In this document: in pieces, positions 168 through 58,351 of the stretch
Numbering within the stretch: position 1 is the stretch's first letter
Layout: the number at the start of each line of letters is the position of its first letter
NCBI GenBank assembly: GCA_038229495.1
Contig: JBBROJ010000006.1
Location: forward strand, 7,038 to 71,037
Source: Chthonomonadales bacterium
GTDB taxonomy: Bacteria > Armatimonadota > Chthonomonadetes > Chthonomonadales > CAJBBX01
Reading direction: 5' to 3'
DNA: 64,000 bases
Notes under the pieces: model-generated
What the model saw: only the letters and a program-made list of their open reading frames with translations
Told to the model about the DNA's origin: nothing
Databases searched by the model: none
Position numbers and translations under genes: made by a program

Positions 168-358
168 GCATAAACTCCTCTAGTGAGCGCACGGGATAAA
201 TCCCTGAGCTTGGTGGCCGTCGGTCGAGTACCTGCCTGCGCAGGTAAGGGATGGATCGTGCTGTGCATCGATTTTGGTGTCCGCACAGGTGCAGACTCGG
301 CCGAAGGCCACACAGGCGCGGCATTCATTCCGACGGAACGTCCGCATGCGCCCTCTCT

Positions 359-1639
359 CTATGCCGCCGTTGAAGGCACGCCCGCGTGGTCGCGCGCCCA
401 CTTCTGCGCGGCCTCGCGGACCTCTGTCAACTGGACCCGGCCGAGTCCGCCGCCCATCCCGTCCGGCTCGATGCGATCCGGATTGTCGAGAATCTTCTGC
501 CAGCGGCGCAGCTCCGCGATATAGGGGTCGGAGGGCGAGCGGGAAAACTCATCGTCGTCCGCGACGTCGAACATGCCGATCTGCGCCCACTCGCCGCTCT
601 GCCAGTCCGGCATGTCCACGGCGGGAAAAAGACAGATGCCCTGAAGATCCACGCAGTCGTTGAGAGCGATCAGGCTCTCCTCCACGACCATGAGGAGCCA
701 CTCGGCGCGGTTGTCCTTATAGCCGCTGGTCTCCCCAATGATGACGGGCCGATGGTAGCGCTCCCACGCAACTTTCAGCATCTCGCTCAAGGGCTTGCGA
801 CGGGGGTCACGCGGCCCGAGCACCGCGCGGCTGCCGTCGGGATTCATCTGCGCCTGCGAAAAATTGTACACGTTTACGCCGACGATGTCGAGAATCTCCG
901 GCGAGCCGCCCAGCTCCGGGGACAGCCTGCCGTACAGCGTGTCCCACGCCTCGAACGCCTTCTCATACGTGTCATGCCACGCCTGCTCTGCTAAATCCGG
1001 TCTGTCCTGCGGCGGCACCTCGTATATGAGCGGGTCTACGTGCACCATGCGGGCTTCGGGGTCCACCTCGCGCAGCGCCTTCGCGCCTTCTATCGCCATC
1101 CGGCAGAGCGCCCGCTTGAACTCCGCGAAACGGCCCTTCGCGAACGGGTACATCCATCCCATGTCGGTTGCGGCGCCGGAGAAGAACGAAATCTCGTTCA
1201 TGGGGGTAAAGTAGCGAATCTTGTGCCGCTGCGCCTTGACGAACTCCGCCGCGGCCCGGCAGTAGTCCGTGAATCGCTTCAGGCAGTCCTCGGAAAAGGG
1301 GTCGCAGCCGTCAGGGAATCCGTAATGGCACAGGTCCCAAATGGCAGTAATCTCGCACGCGTTTGCGGCGTCGATGAACGGCTGCGTGGAGCTCCAATCG
1401 TATTTGCCGCCTCCCTTGTCGACCAGGGGCCACCGAATGCCCTCGCGCACAACTCCGATTCCAAGCTCCATGAGCGATTCGTAGTCGCGCTTCAGGTGCT
1501 TGTCGTGCCCGGTCAGCGCGACGTAGTCCTTCCGCAGCCCATCCCTCCACACGAAGGTGGAGCACTCGAATCCCGCCATGAAGAAGGTTGGGAAAATTCC
1601 CTCGCCCTGTTCCGGCCGGCGAGCCTGCGGATTAGTCAT
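359..1639 (-). CDS. GH1-like (beta-glucosidase-like) TIM-barrel glycoside hydrolase family protein
   Basis: 426-aa ORF with ATG at 1639 and an AAGGGGTGAG SD. N-terminus is FFMAGFECS, followed by ..REGIRW.., and a TPMNEISF acid/base-like NE motif. Call made from memory of the family. Confidence 0.65.
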   Translation of the reverse strand: MTNPQARRPEQGEGIFPTFFMAGFECSTFVWRDGLRKDYVALTGHDKHLKRDYESLMELGIGVVREGIRWPLVDKGGGKYDWSSTQPFIDAANACEITAIWDLCHYGFPDGCDPFSEDCLKRFTDYCRAAAEFVKAQRHKIRYFTPMNEISFFSGAATDMGWMYPFAKGRFAEFKRALCRMAIEGAKALREVDPEARMVHVDPLIYEVPPQDRPDLAEQAWHDTYEKAFEAWDTLYGRLSPELGGSPEILDIVGVNVYNFSQAQMNPDGSRAVLGPRDPRRKPLSEMLKVAWERYHRPVIIGETSGYKDNRAEWLLMVVEESLIALNDCVDLQGICLFPAVDMPDWQSGEWAQIGMFDVADDDEFSRSPSDPYIAELRRWQKILDNPDRIEPDGMGGGLGRVQLTEVREAAQKWARDHAGVPSTAA

Positions 1640-4800: not shown

Positions 4801-5668
4801 TCGTGAGCTGCCGGCTGACGTTAACACGCAGCTTTTCAAGCCGTTCAAAGGCAATTTCGTTTTCGTCCTCTCGCAGGCGGCCGCTCCGGTGTTCATACTC
4901 GGCGTTTCTCTGAAGATGCTGTTCCAATTTGCCGCGCGCATCGGCTTGCAGGTCTTGCAGCAGGGTCTTCACCGCGCCGACCAGAAGCTCCTGATTGACC
5001 GCGTTCGCTCCAACTGGCAGAGCCTGCCGCTCCCATTGGTCCAGATCGGTGGCGATCTCTTGTTCGATGCGCTGCAAATCGGCAAACGTCTCTTTGCGGA
5101 ACTGCTCCCAGAGCAGAAGAAGGGCCTGTTTAACCGTGGGCGAGAGGCCCTCCGCCCCGCCTTCCGTCCATTCGCGAAGAGCGCTCGGAACATCAAGATC
5201 AATGGTCAGCTCGGGTTGCGCAGGATTATCGATGCGCCAGACTGTCAGCCTTCTGCCGTTCGCGAGCCAGCCGGATCGCAGTCCAAGCGACCGGAGATAG
5301 CCACACAATTGGGAGAGGTGGCTTTCCGGATCCGTCACATCGACCGTTAGATCAAGGCCGGTACTTTTGTCTTCTACCACGAAGCAGATGCCATAATCCG
5401 CGTCTTCGGGCGCGAAGTCAGGACGACCGTTCTTGTTGTTCTGATTGTAGACCTGTTCCCCCGGGGCGAATCCCAGCAGGTTTAGCAGAGGGCTTACGAT
5501 GGCGTTGTCTACAATCGCGGCTTCATCTCCAGCACGCCGGGGTGCGGGCCGCTCAAGATAGCGCAACAGATCGCTGCCCTTGAACTGCTTCGTTGTAAAG
5601 AGATTGAAGAAGCCAACCAGGAAATCATCGAACGTCTGCATGTGGAAGCAATCCGTGAAAGGCGACAT
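1841..5668 (-). CDS. single-chain Type IIG restriction endonuclease / N6-adenine DNA methyltransferase (Eco57I/MmeI-like architecture)
   Basis: 1275-aa ORF. The N-terminus has a PD-(D/E)xK-like GRPDF...CFVVEDKS. SAM motif I (DPACGSGSFLVEA) lies upstream of catalytic motif IV (VVANPPYGAK), the gamma-class order. A TaqI-like C-terminal specificity region is present (YLLALFNSSLLNYWY). Confidence 0.85.
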   Translation of the reverse strand: MSPFTDCFHMQTFDDFLVGFFNLFTTKQFKGSDLLRYLERPAPRRAGDEAAIVDNAIVSPLLNLLGFAPGEQVYNQNNKNGRPDFAPEDADYGICFVVEDKSTGLDLTVDVTDPESHLSQLCGYLRSLGLRSGWLANGRRLTVWRIDNPAQPELTIDLDVPSALREWTEGGAEGLSPTVKQALLLLWEQFRKETFADLQRIEQEIATDLDQWERQALPVGANAVNQELLVGAVKTLLQDLQADARGKLEQHLQRNAEYEHRSGRLREDENEIAFERLEKLRVNVSRQLTIFAPLVGLDAQEIASINLNLDDLQRDPLAFLNTKELLAKTLATINAARERKFPNDKKAAKAWTKFDNGLGALGEALKAYGDIAFEWHKRKAFLRHDYRESIEIRENYAIWTAVVQETMLGGLEESGRRDEFALQAAYVVFIRLLLIRVCEDKGILPHRFLSDGGLKRWQEDIERYFLFATGNPYDTLLDMAFQNAQNIYSHFFTGRELFNWYSLNRVRFVRVLAQLSRFNFADVDSDLIGAIYNTYVGRPEKKQKGQYYTPSEIVRYILDETGYVSGPAIIGPDKRLIDPACGSGSFLVEAARRLVAAYKVTVGANPRQLIDRIRDNLFGFDLNPFACYLAEVNLLIQVLDLVKVALDGKNPPRLQRFHVYNVDALAPASGVLYFARANTLMAEELDVVDRIKGRHDEYATGFAWVVANPPYGAKLTDSYKASLREWMGDVFYGQPDTYVFFFRLGIGLLGEKGRLGFITPNTYLMGANTANLREHLLTSGRIEQIVDLPQGIWNDANVDCTLLFLAAEADMEQRRSQQTQVFSMAVRDMLDKLTAREWKEQLTQSQSGWIDDPRHEMNIRWTPLLQQIEEACRVKIGAGPASRIQLFGDVTQSTQGIIPYKTRADGRANLYIKPRREVPSDGAEWKPLLDGSSYVERYGLRPGRENRHVKYGNWLWCPREPKYFESPKLLVQYMRNRALKRRLVATYDETRFYNRHNYSNVITNVSAYDLKYLLALFNSSLLNYWYARRYDNVNINPDYFRQLPIYPADVATQAELVALVDELMSPHAALNTLREQEYVIRTRRDGTPDIQVPYDVLLADMRQRDRNYPVLTLFDAHAAGLLRLPEQCDASAQISRVFTPNNRPSTVVLRANQLWLEVADAAIRRYLLGYLTRPQWKGRSWDEICGQAILPANPQSLAALFTEEARIIAEISATLDAIAAADMAIDNRVLDLYGITDPADRQRVLGSAPVTDDAEMESADGTAEPGEDEAGEAET

Positions 5669-5917
5669 ATCATCCGGTGGCGAAGCCGGGCGGCGATGAG
5701 GACAAATGCGATGACAAACTGAAGCGCGTTGGTATTGTACTTGTCGGCCGGTCAGTTCGTCAATGTGCGGCTGCCGGATCCTGCCAACAGATTCGTGAAT
5801 CTGCAGACGGGACAGGTGACGGAAATATAGGAGATCGGGGCGGTGCGGCCGGAGTTAAGGGCAGCCGCTAGCAACCATAATAGTGCGGGCGCTCGATGCC
5901 CGTTCGAACGGAGCGCG

Positions 5918-7144: not shown

Positions 7145-8290
7145 ATGGACATCGTTCGATTCGGCATCATAGGCGTGGGCGGCATGGGCTTCGGTCATTG
7201 CGCCAGCATGAACCAGATAGAGGAGGCGCATCTGGCCGCCGTCTGCGATACCAACTACGCTGCCCTCAAAGAGGCCAAATCCAGGTATCGTGTACCCGGA
7301 TACGACAACTACGAGGCTCTGCTGGACAGCGGTCTCGTTGACGCCGTCATCATCGCCACGCCCCACTATTTTCATCCGCCCATCGCCGAGGCCGCTTTCC
7401 GCCGCAAGCTGCACGTTCTCTCCGAGAAGCCGATTGGCGTCACCGTTTCCGCCGCCGATGCCATGATTCGCGCGGCGAAAGAATCCGGTTGCGTGTTCGG
7501 CGTGATGTACCAGATGCGCTCATTGGAGCGCGTGCGGACGGCGCTTCGGCTCGTGCGCGAGGGCCGGCTTGGCGAGATCTACCGCACCTCGCTGGTCATG
7601 GGCTGGTATCGCAGCCAGGCATACTACGATTCGGGCGGCTGGCGCGCTACCTGGTCCGGCGAGGGTGGAGGCGTTCTCATAAACCAGGCACCCCATTTTC
7701 TCGACCTGTACACGCTTCTCTCTGGCCTCCCTGTGCGACTGACGGGCTGCACCCGCACGCGCCTGCACGACATTGAGGTCGAGGACGAGGCGTTCGCGAC
7801 ACTCGAATATTCCAACGGAGCCCACGGTTACCTGTACGCCAGCACCATTGAAGCGCCCGGCCACGAGATGCTGGAGCTTTGCGGCGACAAAGGCAAGCTC
7901 GTCATGCACGGCTCCAACCTGCGGTTCTTCGAAATTAAGACGCCCATCCGCGAGCATGTCCGCGAATCTACCGAGATGTGGGGCGGCCCCGAAACCGTCG
8001 AAATGGATCTGAATATTCCCATGACAGGCGGCCAGCACACGGACATCACCCGCAACTTCTGCCGCCACATTCTGTGTGGTGACCCGCTGCTTGCGCCGGG
8101 CGCGGAGGGAATCGACGCGGTCGAGCTTATCAACGGAATCATCCTATCCAGCCATACGGGCGAACCGGTCAGCCTGCCGGTAGACCGCACCGCCTACGAT
8201 CAGCTTATCGCCAAACTTCAGCGCGACTCGAAAAAGAAGCAGCATGTTTTGGAGCAGCGCGTCACGGACACGCACTACGCGGGCCGGTAA
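7145..8290 (+). CDS. Gfo/Idh/MocA family NAD(P)-dependent oxidoreductase
   Basis: 381-aa ORF. Rossmann N-terminus VRFGIIGVGGMG, and EKP motif (LSEKPIG). Confidence 0.85.
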   Translation: MDIVRFGIIGVGGMGFGHCASMNQIEEAHLAAVCDTNYAALKEAKSRYRVPGYDNYEALLDSGLVDAVIIATPHYFHPPIAEAAFRRKLHVLSEKPIGVTVSAADAMIRAAKESGCVFGVMYQMRSLERVRTALRLVREGRLGEIYRTSLVMGWYRSQAYYDSGGWRATWSGEGGGVLINQAPHFLDLYTLLSGLPVRLTGCTRTRLHDIEVEDEAFATLEYSNGAHGYLYASTIEAPGHEMLELCGDKGKLVMHGSNLRFFEIKTPIREHVRESTEMWGGPETVEMDLNIPMTGGQHTDITRNFCRHILCGDPLLAPGAEGIDAVELINGIILSSHTGEPVSLPVDRTAYDQLIAKLQRDSKKKQHVLEQRVTDTHYAGR

Positions 8291-12717: not shown

Positions 12718-12760
12718 GGGTCGTTGGGTCGTTGGGTCGTTGGGTCGTTGGGTCGTTGGG
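12718..12760 (+). repeat. tandem 8-bp repeat GGGTCGTT x5.4, starting 2 nt after the binding-protein stop codon
   Basis: Perfect copies read directly from the sequence. Confidence 0.9.
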
Positions 12761-22256: not shown

Positions 22257-22706
22257 TTAGTACCCCTCCTTGTGTCGGGTGACCCGTAGTGATCGTTTTG
22301 TAGCTTCGTGTCGCTATTCACACCTTGGTCTATCTGCTCGATCGTTACGTTCCGGTTTCACAGTTTGTGGGGCGTTTCTGCGTCGGCTCCCAATAGCAAA
22401 GCAGTCGCGTCGGGGCGCTGTGAAAGAGAATAATTTATAAAGCGGCGAAAAGATTGGCCGCCCTGAACGTTGTGTCTAGTAATTTAATTGCATATTACGA
22501 GTTCCATAGTTTATGACTTTTTTCACAAACCCCCTCGAACGGCCCAATAATGTGCTTATTCTCCACTATTATAGGGAAGCCGGGGTCGATTGTCAAGCAC
22601 TAATTTGTCTCCAATTGCCTCTGAAACGCTGTTTCCGCCCAACTAGCGACGGTTTGTGCACGAAGTTGCGATGTAGGTGTGCACTATTTCACAGTCTACT
22701 TGCCCG

Positions 22707-22800
22707 CTGCCTACCTGCTGCCTACCTGCTGCCTACCTACCTTAGTCCTAAACCTAGTCCTAAACCTAGTCCTAAACTTAGTCCTAAACTTGGTCCTGCC
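22707..22800. repeat. two adjacent tandem-repeat arrays abutting the desulfurase stop codon
   Basis: CTGCCTACCTG x3 at 22707-22739 (11-bp unit), then [C/T]TAGTCCTAAAC x4 plus a degenerate fifth copy at 22742-22800 (12-bp unit). The stop TAA is at 22803-22801. Confidence 0.9.
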
Positions 22801-23952
22801 TTAGCGTGCGAGCGAGCGGAGATTACAGACGATCTCCCGCAGTTTCTCTATGGTGTACTCCACCGCTTCAGCAGTAGTCGAAGCTCCCAGCGTCAAGCGG
22901 AGCGCCCCTCTTGCTCGCTGAACCGGAACTCGCATTGCGAGGAGCACGTGAGAAGGCTCCACGGAACCGGTGGTGCAGGCCGAGCCCGCCGATGCGTATA
23001 TACCCGCCTGATCCAACGCAAGGAGTAGCGATTCGCCCTCCAGCCCATCGAAACAGAAATGGACGTTGTTGGAGAGCCTTGCTTCTCCGGGCCCCATCAA
23101 TATCGCGTCCGGAATACCGCTTTCGATGCCCTCTATCAAGCGGTCGCGGAGAACTGTCAATCTCTCATTCTCCGCCGCCCCAAAGAGTCCTGCAAGTTTT
23201 ATCGCGCTATGAAAACCTACGATTGCCGGTACGTTGAGAGTTCCGGCCCGCCGTCCTTTTTCCTGCTCGCCCCCTTCCAGCAAGCTCGCAATTCGTGTGC
23301 CGCGCCGAACATACAGCGCGCCGACACCCTTGGGTCCATAGAGCTTGTGCGCGGAAAGAGACATGAGAGAGGCACCCATTCGGTCAACGTCAATCTCAAG
23401 CTTTCCCAGCGCCTGCACGGCGTCCGTATGAAACGGCGCTTCGCGCTCGCGGCAGATCGTTCCTATCTCTTCTATGGGCTCAATGGCGCCGACCTCGTTG
23501 TTGGCGTACATTACAGAGACCAGGCATGTTTCCCTACGGATACGCTTTGCAATCCAGCCTGGTTCCACAATACCACGTGAATCTACCGGGATGAATTCGA
23601 CGTCGAAGCCAGCGCGCTGCAATGACTTGCACGGATCGAGTACCGCATGATGCTCGATGGCGGTGGTCAGCAGATGCCTCCGGCTATCCGGAGCCGCGCT
23701 TGCAATGCCCTTGATCGCCCAGTTGCCGGCCTCCGTTCCGCCCGATGTAAAGAATATCTCGTCAGGGTCCGCGCCGACGGCGTCTGCGATATATTCGCGC
23801 GCGTTGTCTACCGCGTCCCTGGCCTCCGCGCCTGCCGAGTAGATGGTTGCCGGGTTACCATAGACCTCGCCAAAGTACGGCAGCATATCCTGAAGTACCT
23901 CAGGCGCTACCGGTGTCGTGGCCGCATGATCGAGATATATTGGCAGTTCCAT
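22801..23952 (-). CDS. cysteine desulfurase (NifS/IscS class, PLP-dependent)
   Basis: 383 aa. Motifs: IYLDHAATTP, the PLP-lysine motif SLSAHKLYGPKG, and the active-site loop SAGSACTTGS. Confidence 0.9.
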   Translation of the reverse strand: MELPIYLDHAATTPVAPEVLQDMLPYFGEVYGNPATIYSAGAEARDAVDNAREYIADAVGADPDEIFFTSGGTEAGNWAIKGIASAAPDSRRHLLTTAIEHHAVLDPCKSLQRAGFDVEFIPVDSRGIVEPGWIAKRIRRETCLVSVMYANNEVGAIEPIEEIGTICREREAPFHTDAVQALGKLEIDVDRMGASLMSLSAHKLYGPKGVGALYVRRGTRIASLLEGGEQEKGRRAGTLNVPAIVGFHSAIKLAGLFGAAENERLTVLRDRLIEGIESGIPDAILMGPGEARLSNNVHFCFDGLEGESLLLALDQAGIYASAGSACTTGSVEPSHVLLAMRVPVQRARGALRLTLGASTTAEAVEYTIEKLREIVCNLRSLAR

Positions 23953-26075: not shown

Positions 26076-27002
26076 TCACTTCACGACAATTGTGCGCAGG
26101 GATGCCAGCAGATCTCGACCATTCTCTTCGACCCAGATGGCGACATAGTATAATCCGGGGCTATTTTGATAGGCCGGCGGCGCGGTCACGCTGAATCGGC
26201 CGCCCGGAGTCGCCTGAACCCTGCGCAGCGATTTGTACGGTGCGGGCCAGTACGTCACGTGGGCGGACGGTATCGTGTAGGAGCGGGTTTCCGCAAGCTG
26301 CTCCCGCGTCATCGCGGCAGGCAGTGGGGCTCTGCCAATTCCGATGGACCGAAATCGCGCGCTTCCGAGCTTCTTGCCGGAAATAGTGATTTCATCGTTG
26401 AGGCCGCATGATATTGGAATCGGATCCGCCTCAATGTATTTATCTACGAACTCCTGCGCGTTGCCCAGGGTCCGAACGTTTCGGTCTCCCGCGCGGGCAA
26501 GACCGATTCCCACGTGCGTATGTTCCGGGGCCAGGATATTGCGGCGGTGGCCGTCGTGAGGGGGAGTCTCGTTAAGATAGGACGCTTCGATCTCCTCGAT
26601 CTCCCGGCGCGTAAACGCGGCATTATTAAGCAAGGGCAGGGGAGCATTCGCGTCGGCGGCCTCGCCGCGATAGCGCGTGGTGCTGAGATAAACGTTCTCC
26701 CTGTCGTAAGACGTGCCGCCCGCATCCGTATAGCGCTGGTCCGGCGGCTTCCCCGCCAGATTGTAGTGCGAAAGGTAGCGCTGCGCGGCCATCTCATCCG
26801 CATGCTTCTGTCCCGCACTAGAAGCAATTAGGTCAAGAGCCACTGGCAGAAGGTCCTTCGTGGCGCGGTCCCGGTTGATCAACTGAAGCATATAAGCTCG
26901 CGCCTCTTCCAGCGGCAATCGGTCCGCCTGCCGCGACAACGGATCGATGCCCAATGATATCGAGGCTGCCAATAGAACAAGGGATAAAATGCGGTTACGC
27001 AT
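26076..27002 (-). CDS. secreted CAP/SCP (YkwD-like) domain protein with C-terminal beta-rich extension
   Basis: Start re-picked at ATG 27002 (MRNRILSLVLLAASISLG signal peptide). CAP motifs SSAGQKHADEMAAQRYLSH and GHRRNILAPEHTHVGIG. Confidence 0.7.
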   Translation of the reverse strand: MRNRILSLVLLAASISLGIDPLSRQADRLPLEEARAYMLQLINRDRATKDLLPVALDLIASSAGQKHADEMAAQRYLSHYNLAGKPPDQRYTDAGGTSYDRENVYLSTTRYRGEAADANAPLPLLNNAAFTRREIEEIEASYLNETPPHDGHRRNILAPEHTHVGIGLARAGDRNVRTLGNAQEFVDKYIEADPIPISCGLNDEITISGKKLGSARFRSIGIGRAPLPAAMTREQLAETRSYTIPSAHVTYWPAPYKSLRRVQATPGGRFSVTAPPAYQNSPGLYYVAIWVEENGRDLLASLRTIVVK

Positions 27003-27022
27003 AGCACGCCTCAACTGGATTA

Positions 27023-27132
27023 ACGTGTAAAACGCATGTCGCGCCACGCATATAAGACAAGTACCATGCCACCCGTGTAAAACAGGAGTCTGGGGAGCCT
27101 CCGGCTAAACGTCCTCCGGACGGAAATCCCGT
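27023..27132 (-). repeat. intergenic repeat module copy A (degenerate 25-bp triplet plus twin hairpin)
   Basis: Aligns with 29259-29371. The core 27088-27132 matches 29326-29371 at about 39 of 45 positions with one indel (manual alignment). Confidence 0.8.
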
Positions 27133-27145
27133 ACTTATTGGGTTG

Positions 27146-28009
27146 TTACCGCGGTCCAAAGCGTGCCTCTACAACACGCTCGATGCCGGCCAGATCGCGA
27201 TGTATATTGACCTCGGCGAACCCCGCCTGATGGAACAAAGACGCCAGTCGGAGGGCCTGGCCATCGGCCACCTCTATACCGATGATTCCACGCGGCTTCA
27301 GAACGCGCTTAGCTTGGGTCAGCAGACGGCGGTGAAAGTCGAAGCCATCCTCCCCCCCGTCTAGGGCCATGCGCGGCTCATAGTCGCGTACCTCGGGCTG
27401 AAGCCCCGGAAGCTCGGCTGTTGGAATGTAGGGCGGATTGGAAACCACCAGATCGACGGAACCGCCGGCTATCGGGTCGAGCATGTCCCCGCGGACATAA
27501 GTCACCCGGTCGGCAACGCCATTGCGGACGGCGTTTTTTCTCGCGATCGCGAGCGCCACTTCGGATAGGTCGACGCCAACTCCGCGGGCATGTGGCAGGT
27601 GAACAGCCGCGCTTATCCCGATACACCCGCTGCCGCTTCCGGCATCGACAATGAGGGGACCGGGGCGGCCGCTGAGATGCCGAATCGCAAGCTCTACCAG
27701 AAGCTCCGTCTCCGGGCGTGGGATGAGCACGGCGGGAGTGACCTCAAACGTCAGTCCGTAAAATTCCTGCATACCCCCAAGATAGGCCAGCGGTACGCGT
27801 CGCTCGCGCTCCGACACCAACCGCTCAAGCTCGCGTGCCTGCTGCTGATTCGGTTGAATGTCGTCGCCCCGGAGAATCACCACCCTTGGAAGGCCAATTG
27901 CAAGCCCGAGAAGAAGCTGGGCTTCGAGTTGCGGCGCTTGTACTCCTGCGGCGACGAGCCGCTGGATGACCTGCCTATATAGAACCTGGGCTGGGTGGAC
28001 TCGTGACAT
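27146..28009 (-). CDS. prmC: release-factor glutamine N5-methyltransferase
   Basis: 287 aa. SAM motif DAGSGSGCIG and catalytic VSNPPYIP. Located immediately downstream of prfA. Confidence 0.9.
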   Translation of the reverse strand: MSRVHPAQVLYRQVIQRLVAAGVQAPQLEAQLLLGLAIGLPRVVILRGDDIQPNQQQARELERLVSERERRVPLAYLGGMQEFYGLTFEVTPAVLIPRPETELLVELAIRHLSGRPGPLIVDAGSGSGCIGISAAVHLPHARGVGVDLSEVALAIARKNAVRNGVADRVTYVRGDMLDPIAGGSVDLVVSNPPYIPTAELPGLQPEVRDYEPRMALDGGEDGFDFHRRLLTQAKRVLKPRGIIGIEVADGQALRLASLFHQAGFAEVNIHRDLAGIERVVEARFGPR

Positions 28010-28106
28010 ATGCTCTTGAGATCCACGGGTTGGAACCCAGGGATCGCGACTGTTGGTGCAAATTCGGCCTACGCCGACTCCCCACGCAGTTATACATATA
28101 CAAGCC

Positions 28107-29198
28107 CTAAATTGAGACCGACGCTTCGCTCTCGGCCCGCAGCTTGTCCGCCTGGTCCGCCGCTACAAGCCGGTCGATAAAGGGCTGGATCTCGCCGTCC
28201 AGCACTGCGGGGACGTTCCAAACCGTGAAGTTGATTCGGTGGTCCGTCACGCGGCCATCTGGGAAGTTGTAGGTGCGAATCTTTTCGCTTCGGTCGCCGG
28301 TTCCCACCTGGGAGCGCCGCGCTTCGGTACGATTGCTGTTGGATATGTTTAGCTCGCGCTCGTAGAGCTTGGCTCGAAGCTGGCGGTATGCCTTTTCCTT
28401 GTTCTGAAACTGGCTCCGCTCATCCTGGCACTGGACCACGATTCCGGTCGGCTTGTGGATCATGCGAATGGCGGTTGCGACCTTTTGTACGTTCTGGCCG
28501 CCCGCGCTGGAGGAGTGAGAAATCTGAATTTCCACGTCGCCCGGATTGATTTCCACTTCCACCTCCTCGGCCTCCGGCAGCACCGCCACAGTCGCCGTGG
28601 ACGTATGTATGCGCCCGCTTGATTCGGTGGCGGGCACCCGCTGCACGCGGTGGACGCCGCTCTCGAACTTGAGCTGGCTGAAGGCCCCGCTTCCCAGAAT
28701 GGAGATGACGACGTCGGTAAAGCCGCCGATTCCGGTGTCCTGAAAGTTCATGATCTCGACCTTCCAGCCGCGCCGCTCCGCGTATCGGGAGTACATGCGG
28801 AACAGCTCGCCCGCAAAAAGAGCCGCCTCCTCACCGCCCGCCGCCGGGCGAATCTCGACAATGACGTTCTTGGTGTCGTTGGGATTATTCGGGAGAAGCA
28901 GGAGCTTGAGCTGCTGTTCCAGATCATCTCGCAGCGGACGAAGTTTCTGCAATTCCCCTTCCGCGAGATCCCTCATTTCGGAGTCGTTCAGAAGCTCTTC
29001 GGATTCTTCGATCTGTTGCAGCGCTCGCCGGTATTCGCGGTAGATAGTGACGAGCGGCTCAAGATCGCTCCAGGCCTTGTTCACTTGATGATACTGCTTT
29101 ATGTCGGATGTAATGTTGGGGTCGAGCATCTGCGCGCCCAACTGCTCAAAGCGCGCTTCGAGCGCATCCAGTTTGTTTTGCGCCTGTTCCAGTGACAC
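28107..29198 (-). CDS. prfA: peptide chain release factor 1
   Basis: PAT tripeptide (RVPATESSGRIHTS) and GGQ motif (SSSAGGQNVQKV). Start re-picked at GTG 29198, 9 nt after GGAGG, because the ORF-track extension runs into the repeat module. Confidence 0.92.
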   Translation of the reverse strand: MSLEQAQNKLDALEARFEQLGAQMLDPNITSDIKQYHQVNKAWSDLEPLVTIYREYRRALQQIEESEELLNDSEMRDLAEGELQKLRPLRDDLEQQLKLLLLPNNPNDTKNVIVEIRPAAGGEEAALFAGELFRMYSRYAERRGWKVEIMNFQDTGIGGFTDVVISILGSGAFSQLKFESGVHRVQRVPATESSGRIHTSTATVAVLPEAEEVEVEINPGDVEIQISHSSSAGGQNVQKVATAIRMIHKPTGIVVQCQDERSQFQNKEKAYRQLRAKLYERELNISNSNRTEARRSQVGTGDRSEKIRTYNFPDGRVTDHRINFTVWNVPAVLDGEIQPFIDRLVAADQADKLRAESEASVSI

Positions 29199-29258
29199 CG
29201 GAACATACCTCCGTCGGTCGAACTTGAGAAATATTGTTTGACAGCCGTCGCATCGTCC

Positions 29259-29371
29259 ACGCGTGTAAAACGCGTATCGCACCACGCGTGTAATACACGT
29301 ATCGCACCACGCGTGTAAAACACGTGTCTGGGGGGCCTTCGGCCAAACGTCCTTCGGACGGAGACGCCCGT
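29259..29371 (-). repeat. intergenic repeat module copy B (25-bp x3 plus twin hairpin)
   Basis: Units at 29259-29283, 29284-29308 and 29309-29333, each starting at a CACGCGTG palindrome. These are followed by the hairpins GGCC-TTC-GGCC and CGTCC-TTC-GGACG. The module ends 3 nt from the DUF1385 stop. Confidence 0.9.
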
Positions 29372-29373
29372 TG

Positions 29374-30501
29374 CTACGCGATGGCCGCGGCGGGCTCTTC
29401 CATGCGCGCAGACGATTCCAGCGCCGGAACGGGCGTAAGATCGTGCGCCTTCTCGCGGTCCAGTACGGCTTGCAGCGACGCGATGGCGACCTCGACGTGC
29501 TCCAAATCGGGCTCGCGAGTCGTTAGCCGCTGAGACCAGAGGCCGGGCGCGAGGAGAGTGCGCGTAATAATTGAATAACGGAAGCGACCCGCCAGCTTTA
29601 TGATCTCGTACGAGATACCGGCTACCACGGGAATCAGCGCAATATGCAGGGCCAGCCGCGTAAAATAGAAAGCCGGCCGGGGCAGAATCGAGTGCACCAG
29701 GATGGACGCCAAAAGCACCACGATGATAAAGCTGGTGCCGCATCGAGGATGGATCCGTGAAGCGCGCATGCAGTTTTCGGGCGTCAGGGGCTCCCCGGAT
29801 TCCAGGGTGTTGATGGCCTTGTGTTCCGCTCCATGAAACTGGAACACGCGGCGAATTGCCTCCAGCCGCGAGATCATGGCGATGTAGCCCAGGAAGATTG
29901 TCATTCGGATTACGCCGTCAATAAGATTGAGCTGTACTTGCTGCCCGCGAGTAAGGAAAGCGCCGTGCAGCCCCGTGAATCGCTGAACTAACTGGGTGAG
30001 TAGAGTGGGCAGGGCGACGAAGAGCGTGATTCCGAAGCATATGGAGAAGAGCATCGTGCCGCCGACGACATAGTCATTAATCCGGCTGGGCGCAGGAATC
30101 CGGCTGGATGCGGGGATTCGGCTGGGCACGGGAGCCACGGACTCACCGGATGCCGATTCCGCCGCCGCAATTGCCGTCCCATTTCCAGATTCGGCACTTA
30201 TATTTTCCTGTACCGTTCCGAGAGCCTGCGCCTGTACGTCGGCCGCGAACTTCAGCGCCTTCATGCCGAGCGCCATGGCATCGATGAGCGCCAAGGTCCC
30301 GCGCAGCAGGGGGCGGTTCATCCAGAGAAACTTGCCGACGATTGATCTGTCGACCGGCTCCTCCTGCACGACGATGCCGCCATCCGGCTTCCGGCAGGCA
30401 ACGGCGAAGTATCGCGGGCTGCGCATCATTACGCCCTCGATTACCGCCTGTCCGCCATATTGCAGGAACTTCTCGTTCGATTTCTTATCGGAACTGCTCA
30501 C
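29374..30501 (-). CDS. DUF1385 family membrane protein
   Basis: 375 aa, GTG start. YGGQAVIEGVMMR N-terminus, HGAEHKAIN motif, several TM helices. Sits in the conserved position between rpmE and prfA. Confidence 0.8.
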   Translation of the reverse strand: MSSSDKKSNEKFLQYGGQAVIEGVMMRSPRYFAVACRKPDGGIVVQEEPVDRSIVGKFLWMNRPLLRGTLALIDAMALGMKALKFAADVQAQALGTVQENISAESGNGTAIAAAESASGESVAPVPSRIPASSRIPAPSRINDYVVGGTMLFSICFGITLFVALPTLLTQLVQRFTGLHGAFLTRGQQVQLNLIDGVIRMTIFLGYIAMISRLEAIRRVFQFHGAEHKAINTLESGEPLTPENCMRASRIHPRCGTSFIIVVLLASILVHSILPRPAFYFTRLALHIALIPVVAGISYEIIKLAGRFRYSIITRTLLAPGLWSQRLTTREPDLEHVEVAIASLQAVLDREKAHDLTPVPALESSARMEEPAAAIA

Positions 30502-31685: not shown

Positions 31686-32318
31686 ATGTTCTCCCAATTT
31701 TCCCAATCTGTGCGCGTCTTCGGACGCGGATTTGCGGCCGCTGCCGCCTTCGTCGTCGTCGCCCCTGCCGCCGTTCGCGCGGAAGAAGCAGGTTCGTTCA
31801 CCTGCCCGGTCCTTGGATCGAAGATCGAGTCGGTAACCAAGGACACGCTCTCCGCGGACTATAGGGGCGTCCGGTACTACTTCTGCTGCGCCTCCTGCAA
31901 GCCGCAGTTCGAGAAAGACCCGGCCAAGTTCCTCAAGTCCACCACGAACAAGGACAAGGTGATCGGCGCGTCCCTCTTCGACCCTATCTCCACGAAGCGT
32001 CTCGACCCCGATAAGGCCGCCGCGCACAGTGACTACAACGGCGTGCGGTACTTCTTTTCCACTGCCGACGAGAAGAGATCCTTCGACAAGGAGCCGAAGA
32101 AGTTGGCTTTGACCCCGGAGAAGGACGTGTTGTTCTGCCCGGTCAGTAACGAAACGGTCGACTCCTATGCGGAGGCGTCCGACTACAGTGACGTGAAGGG
32201 AACGCGCTACTACTTCTGCTGCGCGGGCTGTAAACCCAAGTTCGATCAGAACCCGGATAAGTATCTGGAGGGACTGGACGCCCGCATCAAGGCCGCAAAG
32301 AAGAAGAGCGACAAGTAG
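31686..32318 (+). CDS. exported protein with three YHS/TRASH-type metal-binding repeats
   Basis: Signal peptide. Repeats: GVRYYFCCASCKPQFEKDPAKFL; GVRYFFSTADEKRSFDKEPKK (Cys-less); GTRYYFCCAGCKPKFDQNPDKYL. Confidence 0.8.
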   Translation: MFSQFSQSVRVFGRGFAAAAAFVVVAPAAVRAEEAGSFTCPVLGSKIESVTKDTLSADYRGVRYYFCCASCKPQFEKDPAKFLKSTTNKDKVIGASLFDPISTKRLDPDKAAAHSDYNGVRYFFSTADEKRSFDKEPKKLALTPEKDVLFCPVSNETVDSYAEASDYSDVKGTRYYFCCAGCKPKFDQNPDKYLEGLDARIKAAKKKSDK

Positions 32319-40090: not shown

Positions 40091-40145
40091 CGCCCGTGAG
40101 GACGGTTGGCCGAAGGCCCTTCCGCGAGTGAATTTATTCACTCGC
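40091..40145 (+). terminator. three consecutive hairpins after paralog 1 (twin-hairpin module copy C plus a 10-bp palindrome)
   Basis: CCGT-GAGG-ACGG, GGCC-GAA-GGCC, then GCGAGTGAAT-TT-ATTCACTCGC (40124-40145). Confidence 0.5.
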
Positions 40146-53764: not shown

Positions 53765-55060
53765 TTGCCTAAGATAGCCATGATCGGAGCGGGCAGCACC
53801 GTATTTGCGAAGAACCTGCTAGGCGACATTTTGAGCTTTCCCGAGCTGGCCGGCAGCCACGTCGCGCTAATGGACATCGACGAAGAGCGGCTGCGTGTCT
53901 CGGAAGTGGTGGCGCGCAAGGTAGGCCAGGCTGTCGGCGCGCGCCCCCGCATCACCGCGCACACGGACCGGCGACACGCGCTTGATGGGGCCGATTACGT
54001 TATCAATATGATTCAGGTGGGAGGCTACGCGCCGGGAACGGTCCTCGATTTCGAGATTCCGAAGAAATACGGGCTGCGCCAGACCATTGCCGATACGCTG
54101 GGAATCGGCGGAATCATGCGCGCGCTACGGACCATTCCGGTCGTGCTTGATATGTGCAGGGATATGGAAGAACTTTGCCCTGGCGTCCAGTTCCTGAACT
54201 ATACCAACCCCATGGCAATGCTATGCTGGATCGTGAACAGTGCGACGAAGATTCGAACCGTCGGCCTCTGCCACAGCGTGCAGGGGACCGCCGGGCAGCT
54301 CGCCAGGGACATCGGCGTGTCTCTGGAAGAGATCAATTACTTCTGCGCCGGCATCAATCACATGGCCTTCTTCCTGCGGTTTGAAAGGGACGGAAAGGAC
54401 CTCTATCCGCTGATTCGCAGAGTGATCGAGGAGAATCGCATACCCGACGGGAATCGCGTCCGCTACGAGATGCTGGCCCGGCTTGGCTACTTCGTGACCG
54501 AATCGAGCGAGCACTTCGCGGAATACTGTCCCTACTTTATCAAGTCCGCCCACCCCGAGCTGATCGAGCGATTCAACGTGCCGCTCGACGAATATATCCG
54601 GCGATGCGTGAGCCAGATTGAGGGTTGGAAGTCGATGCGAGAAACCTTCGAGGGCGAAGAGCCGGTAGAGATAAAGCGGAGCCACGAGTATGGGTCCCTG
54701 ATTATCCACTCGATGGAGACCGGAGTTCCGCGAGTAATCTATGGCAACGTGCGGAACAACGATCTCATCACGAATCTGCCGAAGGACTGCTGCGTCGAGG
54801 TGCCCTGCCTCGTAGACAGGAACGGTATCCAGCCTACCCCGGCGGGCGATCTGCCGAAACAGCTCGCGGCTATTATGATGACGAATGTGAACGTGCAATC
54901 GCTGACGGTTGAAGCGGCTCTTACCGGAAAGCGCGAGCACGTCTACCAGGCGGCCATGATGGACCCGCATACGTCGAGCGAGCTGACGCTGGATCAGATA
55001 TGGTCCATGGTGGATGAGCTCATTGCGGCGCACGGTGATTACATCCCGCCGCTGACATAA
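53765..55060 (+). CDS. GH4 family NAD/Mn-dependent alpha-glucosidase/alpha-galactosidase
   Basis: TTG start 8 nt after GGAGGA. PKIAMIGAGSTVFAKNLLGDIL, GLCHSVQGT, CAGINHMAFF. Confidence 0.85.
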   Translation: MPKIAMIGAGSTVFAKNLLGDILSFPELAGSHVALMDIDEERLRVSEVVARKVGQAVGARPRITAHTDRRHALDGADYVINMIQVGGYAPGTVLDFEIPKKYGLRQTIADTLGIGGIMRALRTIPVVLDMCRDMEELCPGVQFLNYTNPMAMLCWIVNSATKIRTVGLCHSVQGTAGQLARDIGVSLEEINYFCAGINHMAFFLRFERDGKDLYPLIRRVIEENRIPDGNRVRYEMLARLGYFVTESSEHFAEYCPYFIKSAHPELIERFNVPLDEYIRRCVSQIEGWKSMRETFEGEEPVEIKRSHEYGSLIIHSMETGVPRVIYGNVRNNDLITNLPKDCCVEVPCLVDRNGIQPTPAGDLPKQLAAIMMTNVNVQSLTVEAALTGKREHVYQAAMMDPHTSSELTLDQIWSMVDELIAAHGDYIPPLT

Positions 55061-55130
55061 CCCGCAGGCATCTCTTCCTGAATGAGCAGCAAGGCCGCTG
55101 GAGCGAAATCTCCAGCGGCCTTGTGCGCGC
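55057..55130 (+). repeat. 74-bp direct repeat, left copy (contains the GH4 stop codon and a 13-bp-stem hairpin at 55091-55122)
   Basis: 69 of 74 positions identical to 58278-58351 (manual alignment). Confidence 0.9.
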
Positions 55131-58277: not shown

Positions 58278-58351
58278 ATAACCCGCAGGTATCTCTTCTC
58301 GAACGAGCAGCAAGGCCGCTGGAGCGAAATTTCCAGCGGCCTTGTGCGCGC
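58278..58351 (+). repeat. 74-bp direct repeat, right copy (hairpin at 58312-58343 with one G-T pair)
   Basis: See the left copy at 55057-55130. Confidence 0.9.

Follow-up and report, generated by a model that had tools for sequence, protein, structure and literature searches.

A twin-hairpin intergenic repeat of Armatimonadota that flanks a Y1 transposase gene in relatives and probably acts at the DNA level

Copies of the element and their gene context

The 64-kb stretch of a Chthonomonadales genome analysed here (64,000 nucleotides of contig JBBROJ010000006.1; hereafter the window) carries short intergenic elements that begin with a pair of small hairpins. A sequence-only reading had described the pair as a 45-nt module and had given the identity of two copies, A and B, as about 39/45. 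The minus-strand letters of both copies agree with those quoted then, and segments 27088-27132 and 29326-29371 are identical at 39 positions, with a single indel between them. The minus-strand sequence is CGTCC-GAA-GGACG-TTT-GGCC-GAA-GGCC-CCCCAGAC in copy B and CGTCC-GGA-GGACG-TTT-AGCC-GGA-GGCT-CCCCAGAC in copy A. Both hairpin loops thus have GAA in copy B where copy A has GGA, and the outer pair of the second hairpin is G-C in B and A-T in A. Copies A and B are the sole matches in 64 kb to the 27-nt twin-hairpin pattern, allowing up to three mismatches (0.00 expected from 100 shuffles). Although the twin hairpins are present as described, they are only part of the element. The likeness of A and B covers 101 nt at 82% identity (27024-27124 versus 29262-29362; repeat family D2), and the head, consisting of the first and second hairpins (HP1 and HP2), is followed by the CCCCAGAC tag and by three 25-nt units, each with a third hairpin (HP3, of the type ACGTGT-TTT-ACACG), which the 45-nt description missed. 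The whole element in copies A and B is about 100 nt long.

Bit scores for the copies come from a covariance model, R1, built from family members. A proposed partial copy at 40091-40123 (copy C) is a real relative at 26 bits, but it also has an HP3 that extends it to 40145, and its HP1 is CGCCC-GTGA-GGACG, which comparison with relatives reads as a GTGA loop with one C.A mismatch. A GAA-loop hairpin pair at about 298-345, previously left uncounted, proved to belong to a weak family member at 278-342 (copy D, 22.9 bits), in which HP2 (GGCC-GAA-GGCC, 299-309) is intact and the remaining hairpins have decayed. The copies and their parts are as follows.

29257..29362, minus strand: copy B, whole (head of HP1 and HP2, tag, three HP3 units); R1 57 bits, D2 repeat
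29348..29360, minus strand: copy B HP1, CGTCC-GAA-GGACG
29334..29344, minus strand: copy B HP2, GGCC-GAA-GGCC
29326..29333, minus strand: copy B tag, CCCCAGAC (family consensus YCCCAGAC)
29307..29325, minus strand: copy B HP3 unit 1, ACGTGTTTTACACGCGTGG
29282..29300, minus strand: copy B HP3 unit 2, ACGTGTATTACACGCGTGG
29257..29275, minus strand: copy B HP3 unit 3, ACGCGTTTTACACGCGTGG
27024..27124, minus strand: copy A, whole (head, tag, three HP3 units in partial decay); R1 48.8 bits, D2 repeat
27110..27122, minus strand: copy A HP1, CGTCC-GGA-GGACG
27096..27106, minus strand: copy A HP2, AGCC-GGA-GGCT
27088..27095, minus strand: copy A tag, CCCCAGAC
27069..27087, minus strand: copy A HP3 unit 1, TCCTGTTTTACACGGGTGG
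40091..40145, plus strand: copy C, three-hairpin layout; R1 26 bits, E = 3e-6
40091-40105, plus strand: copy C HP1, CGCCC-GTGA-GGACGG
40108-40118, plus strand: copy C HP2, GGCC-GAA-GGCC
40124-40145, plus strand: copy C HP3, GCGAGTGAAT-TT-ATTCACTCGC, a sequence of its own
278..342, plus strand: copy D, degenerate, weak fourth member; R1 22.9 bits, E = 3e-5

Copies A, B and C are sense to transcription, 11-53 nt beyond stop codons. Copy D is antisense to the gene whose stop precedes it (359-1639, minus strand), and the claim that the module is always sense therefore fails already within the window. The genes around copies A and B are these.

29374..30501, minus strand: DUF1385 (YqhQ-like) gene, stop just upstream of copy B; Pfam PF07136, E = 2e-80
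28107..29198, minus strand: prfA; Pfam PCRF/RF-1
27146..28009, minus strand: prmC; Pfam PrmC_N/MTS
26076..27047, minus strand: CAP-domain gene, downstream of copy A; Pfam PF00188

The prmC stop lies upstream of copy A by 21 nt, counted to the R1 match, or 23 nt, counted to HP1; an exact look-up of the window prmC protein gave no record. Judged by comparison with the related locus L115, prfA likely starts at the GTG at 29198, with GGAGG ahead of it at 29207-29212, about 58 nt past the end of the element. The CAP-domain gene probably has its real start further in than 27047. One could envisage the attC site of an integron cassette at such a place, but the neighbouring genes belong to the core translation set and inspection of the sequence shows no GTTRRRY core, and this candidate was rejected.

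Copy B is also present in Logan contig L114, which encodes a DUF1385 protein 99% identical to that of the window and whose twin-hairpin core likewise scores 57 bits; the contig ends inside copy B. A near-identical strain is contained in Logan run SRR19962015. Syntenic contigs with the order rpmE-DUF1385-prfA-prmC-CAP (two at 76% and one at 65% protein identity) have no element at either the A or the B site. The prmC-CAP gap of one of them is only 28 nt, and their DUF1385-prfA spacer contains unrelated repeats or an inserted open reading frame (ORF) instead. The presence of copy B in contig L114, together with the empty sites in the syntenic relatives, argues that the elements are recent insertions and not conserved operon signals.

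The DUF1385-prfA spacer is a hot spot in relatives (L115, L116 and L117). A 20-bp inverted repeat, GGGCGAATAACTCGCCAACG / CGTTGGCGAGTTATTCGCCC, lies amid short repeats of the CCTGAAYACC type at L115 4164-4378 and L116 1679-1885, and in L117 a 314-aa ORF with no Pfam match is inserted in this spacer (4850-5794). The prmC-CAP spacer of L117 (about 7840-7880) is filled by CCTAAATCC-type repeats resembling window 22700-22802, where CTGCCTAC(C) is repeated about four times in tandem, followed by about five copies of TAGTCCTAAACC.

A family of covarying hairpins in Armatimonadota

One genome per species, 185,579 species in all, was scanned with the exact pattern GTCCGNAGGACNTTTNGCCGNAGGC. Of the 29 loci found, 27 are in Chthonomonadaceae, Chthonomonadales, Armatimonadaceae or Armatimonadota assemblies and one (L004) is in an unclassified bacterial assembly; an Opitutae match (L027) was dismissed as chance, as it lies inside an ORF and was not recovered by the covariance model. 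The R1 model gave 48 matches in 28 loci, representing about ten genomes, and four copies in the window; the complete chromosome OZ251990.1 carries at least 13 copies. In the literature searched, no paper connects Chthonomonas with such repeats.

The full unit consists of HP1 and HP2, with 4-6 bp stems and C-GNA-G or C-GNNA-G loops, a YCCCAGAC tag and at least one third hairpin, and every lineage has the twin hairpin, the tag and the third hairpin in this order. Variants of the tag (CTAGAC, CAGCGAA and AAAGCC) also occur 5' of HP3. The HP3 stem is lineage-specific, but its position and its T-rich loop (TTCA, TTTA or TTC) are constant, and it is frequently repeated in tandem. Among 119 fetched loci, the window-type HP3, TTTTACACGCGTGG, was found in none outside the window, so that none of these loci offers a cognate gene for the window genome.

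Head-to-head doublets are common among the relatives' copies (L005 2343-2464; L009 190-311 and 5687-5774; L010 4234-4333; L006 1673-1770; L013 6333-6530; L022 5486-5642; L002 2557-2654; L017 5852-5950). The partner copy in five of these nine has a different HP2, GGCG-GAA-CGCC, which is also present upstream of the Y1 transposase gene (see below) in L033 and L118. At L021 2843-3565, seven whole modules stand in tandem between two genes with a period of about 95-100 nt, interrupted by a run of N. In assembly CAWFQB (L002, L003, L011, L015 and L029), an 18-nt inverted repeat, AGAGCCTATCCCAATAGG ... CCTATTGGGATAGGCTCT, encloses the three hairpins and gives them a cloverleaf-like outline or that of a miniature inverted-repeat transposable element (MITE).

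To guard against circularity, sites were chosen by loop and tag geometry alone (G.A-N12-G.A followed by AG[AC][CG]). All nine tested pairs formed at 54 of the 534 sites so selected, and the background peaked at 1-2 pairs per hairpin. Among 43 unique gapless copies, 90% of cells were paired, and cells changed on both sides numbered 64 against a shuffled mean of 18.5, a value reached by none of 500 shuffles. The outer HP1 pair, which had no part in the selection, was GC in 13 of these copies, CG in nine, AU in five, UA in three and GU in three. A second alignment, of 77 matches near transposase genes, was fitted to the model and is hence biased toward the structure; it had 90.7% of cells paired and 120 double-sided-change cells against 33.9 (0 of 500 shuffles), with both-sided changes at 11 of 11 pairs. 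Slid controls were low in both tests. The compensatory change first noticed between A and B, at pair 19-29, preserves pairing as claimed and is one case of this strong family-wide covariation (at that pair, GC in 28 copies and AU in 13). HP3 was analysed per sequence because the MAFFT alignment is not structure-aware; a hairpin of at least 6 bp directly follows the tag in 76% of 95 unique copies versus 21% of shuffles, and 37 distinct stem arms were counted. The hairpins can thus be taken as genuine and conserved.

C-GNA-G and C-GNNA-G account for the great majority of loops, and the middle base is free (GCA, GAA, GGA and GTA). The two loops had been said to change together, and between A and B they do (GAA to GGA); family-wide, however, the loops of HP1 and HP2 do not vary in step, and every combination of GAA, GCA, GGA and GTA is present. 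The stems of HP3, on the strand as read, contain 47 G.T pairs versus 20 A.C pairs, indicating that one strand is the folded strand, which fits single-stranded DNA and RNA alike. Covariation is unable to separate DNA from RNA. Folding energies do not discriminate between them either, as twin hairpins were predicted for copy B and for its complement under both DNA and RNA parameters (z = -2.1 to -2.7).

Orientation, RNA-level signals and the Y1 transposase gene

The gene calls used for the orientation count were crude but sanity-checked. Between co-directional genes, 22 of the 52 model matches were sense (seven of them in one tandem array) and 12 were antisense; 10 were between convergent genes, three were between divergent genes, and five were unclassified, one neighbour lying past the locus end. 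Singletons between co-directional genes were divided roughly 7 sense to 4 antisense. Orientation across the family is thus mixed, an outcome that the sequence-only reading had itself named as refuting its claim. A promoter and terminator scan of the window gave no terminator call and no U tract at any copy, and no promoter site at the elements. HP1 is trailed by no more than UUU, and HP2 and HP3 by C/G-rich sequence; an intrinsic terminator was rejected, the hairpins having no following U tract and neither A nor B having a terminator call. Rfam searches of the whole window at gathering thresholds returned no match, and relaxed thresholds over 26950-29450 gave one 11-bit chance match (E = 4.2) away from the elements.

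These results bear on the proposal that the element is an RNA-level cis element (a terminator, a 3' stabiliser or a protein-binding motif) selected to regulate upstream genes. In agreement with it, copies A, B and C follow stop codons in the sense orientation, the hairpins covary, the strand as read has more G.T than A.C pairs, few copies lie between divergent genes (3 of 47 classified), and repetitive extragenic palindromes (REPs) are reported to lie mostly 3' of coding regions, with a possible role as RNA elements (PMC3733652). Nevertheless, orientation is mixed, among singletons too, copy D is antisense, head-to-head doublets are numerous, the same operon spacers in syntenic relatives do without the element, and the U tract, terminator call and Rfam match are all missing. 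The loops also obey the rule of DNA mini-hairpins, GNA or GNNA and including GGCA, and not that of RNA GNRA loops; C-GNA-G and C-GNNA-G are the motif of extraordinarily stable DNA mini-hairpins, of which the RNA versions are much less stable (PMC13037366, PMC3201870). Moreover, an RNA role leaves unexplained a tight physical link to a transposase gene, described below. Regulation of upstream genes through RNA is therefore a quite unlikely primary role, and given the loops, the single-stranded-DNA partner enzyme of the HUH type and the occurrence in both orientations to transcription, the balance tilts toward the strand as read folding as single-stranded DNA. In E. coli, REPs are known to stabilise RNA 3' ends. 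By analogy, it is possible that RNA 3' stabilisation is a side effect of the hairpins here: copies A, B and C share a transcript with the genes upstream of them, and their hairpins could thereby slow down 3' exonucleases.

At locus L016, inverted twin-hairpin modules and HP3 arrays bracket a 144-aa ORF that matches Pfam Y1_Tnp (PF01797, E = 5.5e-24) and contains HUH (DHVH) and YIKHQKQHH motifs. This Y1 protein has 207 homologues at E <= 1e-10, most recorded on one contig each, and several of them carry the JGI name RayT. Homologues at L030, L031 (two genes), L032, L033 and L118, six in all, have inverted HP1-HP2-tag-HP3 modules on both sides; L030-L033 and L118 were fetched by protein identity alone, and the P0006 and P0007 look-ups came from other samples. 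The flanking modules are mutual reverse complements with their 5' ends toward the gene, and their stem sequences vary from locus to locus (for example CCGGTC-GCA-GACCGG tt GGCG-GAA-CGCC and CCGCCC-GTGA-GGGCGG tt GGCGAC-GCA-GTTGCC). A metagenome scan with the Y1 protein alignment added 80 loci. Inverted-flank similarity exceeded the maximum of 620 shuffles at 28 of the 31 closest homologue loci having both flanks. Near transposase genes, 66 of 77 model matches were within 300 nt of the gene, with 26 minus versus 6 plus upstream and 24 plus versus 10 minus downstream.

Close Y1 proteins share flank types, as do L031b and L033 (80% identical, both of the GGTC type) and L037 and L038 (74% identical). 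The two Y1 genes of L031 (3001-3441 and 5869-6318) are 2.4 kb apart, and each has its own module type, with an HP1 stem of GTCC/GGAC in one and GGTC/GACC in the other. Gene-less identical modules are dispersed in the same genomes as the module-flanked gene. In a complete 4.86-Mb chromosome, the Y1 gene of P0001 is recorded on a single contig, with one 40%-identical paralogue and at least 13 gene-less modules.

In the alignment of Y1 proteins (A3; 136-164 aa), H55, H57 and Y115 are invariant within DHVH and Y115-x3-Q119-K120-x-H122-H123, as is W95-Q96. The clade passed the IS200/IS605 model NF033573 (79-95 bits, cut-off 55), and the nearest solved structures are TnpA proteins of the IS200 type (2F4F, 2FYX, 2EC2, 2XM3 and 2A6M); E. 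coli TnpAREP was absent among the structure matches. On these sequence motifs, the associated enzyme is IS200-like (Y...Q..HH, resembling TnpAY1 subclass 1.2) and not a canonical RAYT (REP-associated tyrosine transposase).

One could therefore take the modules for the ends of an ordinary autonomous insertion sequence (IS) of the IS200/IS605 type and its MITE-like derivatives, with nothing domesticated about them. Besides the profile and structure matches, this idea draws on the more distant Y1 homologues (28-43% identity), some of which have strong direct, not inverted, flank similarity (L053, L064, L065, L069, L072, L074, L079, L085, L097, L102 and L106), suggesting a different end arrangement in those lineages. 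IS608 and ISDra2 likewise have a Y1 HUH enzyme of the same fold family, and subterminal hairpins with adjoining short single-stranded motifs. However, both ends of IS200/IS605 elements are on one strand, and the flanking modules here are inverted; the gene is low in copy number, recorded on a single contig of the 4.86-Mb chromosome, against many gene-less hairpin modules; no tnpB gene adjoins the Y1 gene in the loci inspected; and Y...Q..HH together with WQ matches subclass 1.2, which was described without IS features (PMC6006769). An ordinary IS is accordingly unlikely.

The link with the enzyme also bears on whether the element is a repeated DNA site for a host factor, for instance one that primes single-strand initiation or is bound by gyrase or a nucleoid factor. 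The ssiA priming signal of RSF1010 does contain CCGAAGG mini-hairpins (PMC13037366), and E. coli bacterial interspersed mosaic elements are reported to bind several proteins (PMC2817692). A host site would not be expected, though, to have stems that vary by lineage in step with the associated Y1 protein, or to be absent at the orthologous positions of relatives, and no link to replication features was found at 11 loci of chromosome OZ251990.1. We regard this explanation as very improbable.

A REP-like mobile repeat and its comparison with known systems

Mixed orientation, unconserved operon spacers, the lack of a terminator and the flanking of a transposase gene make a DNA-level mobile repeat the primary explanation. 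We are fairly confident that the element is a non-autonomous REP-like repeat, mobile or domesticated, that has the twin hairpin as its conserved head, acts as single-stranded DNA and is restricted to Chthonomonadales/Armatimonadota. Several observations weigh against this. No Y1 gene was found in the window by tblastn with the L016 protein, which leaves a cognate enzyme in this organism putative. The Y1 clade failed NF047646, the model of REP-associated tyrosine transposases (23-31 bits, cut-off 80), while passing NF033573, and the 5' GT[AG]G tag of canonical REPs is absent, YCCCAGAC or its variants standing 5' of HP3 instead. No replication-strand bias was seen at the 11 loci of OZ251990.1 (GC skew, gene-strand bias and positions), and no cleavage, excision or target-site signature has been demonstrated. 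Finally, the window's three clear copies all lie in the sense direction a short way past stop codons, as an RNA role predicts, although these are three cases only.

The TnpA proteins of IS608 and ISDra2 and E. coli TnpAREP suggest by analogy how the Y1 enzyme would work: it would read the hairpins that form on one strand of transiently single-stranded DNA, cut beside them through a 5'-phosphotyrosine intermediate and re-ligate elsewhere. Such an activity would account for the presence of copies A-D in the intergenic spacers of the window genome. With three hairpins, a free middle base in the loop and covarying stems, the module offers a compact substrate for the study of how Y1 enzymes read hairpins. 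For annotation, these blocks of about 100 nt should not be labelled small RNAs, terminators or prfA operators, and they break short-read assemblies, as in contig L114.

The window contains other repeats as well. A perfect tandem array of an 8-nt unit, GGGTCGTT, in about five copies, occupies 12718-12760. A 74-nt repeat at 55057-55130 and 58278-58351 (93% identity), directly past a stop codon, forms a 14-bp hairpin, CAAGGCCGCTGGAG-CGAAAT-CTCCAGCGGCCTTG, with no T tract, and represents either a further family of intergenic repeats or the duplicated end of a gene. At 31872-32262, within an ORF, a segment of about 58 nt that encodes a motif of the type YYFCC..C.P.FE.DP.K is repeated three times in frame.

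Two known classes resemble the element in part. The CGTC-tagged REPs of Di Nocera et al. (2013) are small palindromic repeats downstream of genes, and CGTC also opens HP1; however, they have an unpaired CGTC, 8-9 bp stems, 4-5 nt loops, a CCA tail and no transposase (PMC3733652), whereas here CGTC is inside a 5-bp stem with 3-nt GNA loops and a transposase is associated. Membership in that class was ruled out on anatomy. HP1 and HP2 share with the DNA mini-hairpins d(GCGNAGC) and d(cGNNAg) the closing of a GNA or GNNA loop by a C-G pair with N free; the mini-hairpin is a thermodynamic motif and not a genetic element, and stability is here predicted from the loop sequence.

The closest likeness in organisation is to the REP/RAYT system, the REPtron of E. 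coli, Pseudomonas and Stenotrophomonas. Among transposases that a host has kept along with many short repeats it is the best-known case, and nearly all work on it concerns Proteobacteria and class 2 enzymes. A REPtron consists of a low-copy Y1 gene between inverted repeats, which also occur dispersed in the genome (PMC6006769, PMC2817692, PMC3733652). Both systems have short hairpin-forming extragenic repeats in many copies per genome, a low-copy HUH/Y1 gene between inverted repeats (seen here in relatives), a repeat variant specific to the gene variant, copies chiefly downstream of genes and, in the relatives, common head-to-head doublets. They differ in the unit, which here has three parts (a pair of mini-hairpins, the tag and a third hairpin able to form arrays) versus one palindrome of 20-40 nt; in the enzyme, Y...Q..HH versus the Y...NP of TnpAY1 class 2, with NF047646 failed; and in the host phylum, Armatimonadota. 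The presence of the same gene-plus-inverted-repeat organisation in a second, IS200-like enzyme lineage suggests, at the level of sequence motifs, that the arrangement arose more than once.

TnpAY1 subclass 1.2, as defined by Quentin et al. (2018), has DH[IV]H, WQ and YIxNQKxHH motifs, a median length of about 148 aa and a low copy number, and was reported in Cyanobacteria and Bacteroidetes without REPs or IS-type terminal hairpins (PMC6006769). The proteins studied here agree with it in DHVH, WQ, YIxNQKQHH, length (136-164 aa) and low copy number, a motif-level match, but unlike those described, their genes carry conserved inverted hairpin modules, which are dispersed in the genome too. A more specific proposal, on which we find ourselves evenly divided, is that the modules are the missing cognate repeats of subclass 1.2, and that they and the enzyme form an independently domesticated system of the REPtron type with a tripartite recognition unit, present in Armatimonadota and in many soil and freshwater metagenome lineages. 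The unit recognised would then be made up of a pair of C-GNA-G DNA mini-hairpins, a tag of the CAGAC type and a third hairpin that can form arrays, in place of the single palindrome of the REPtron.

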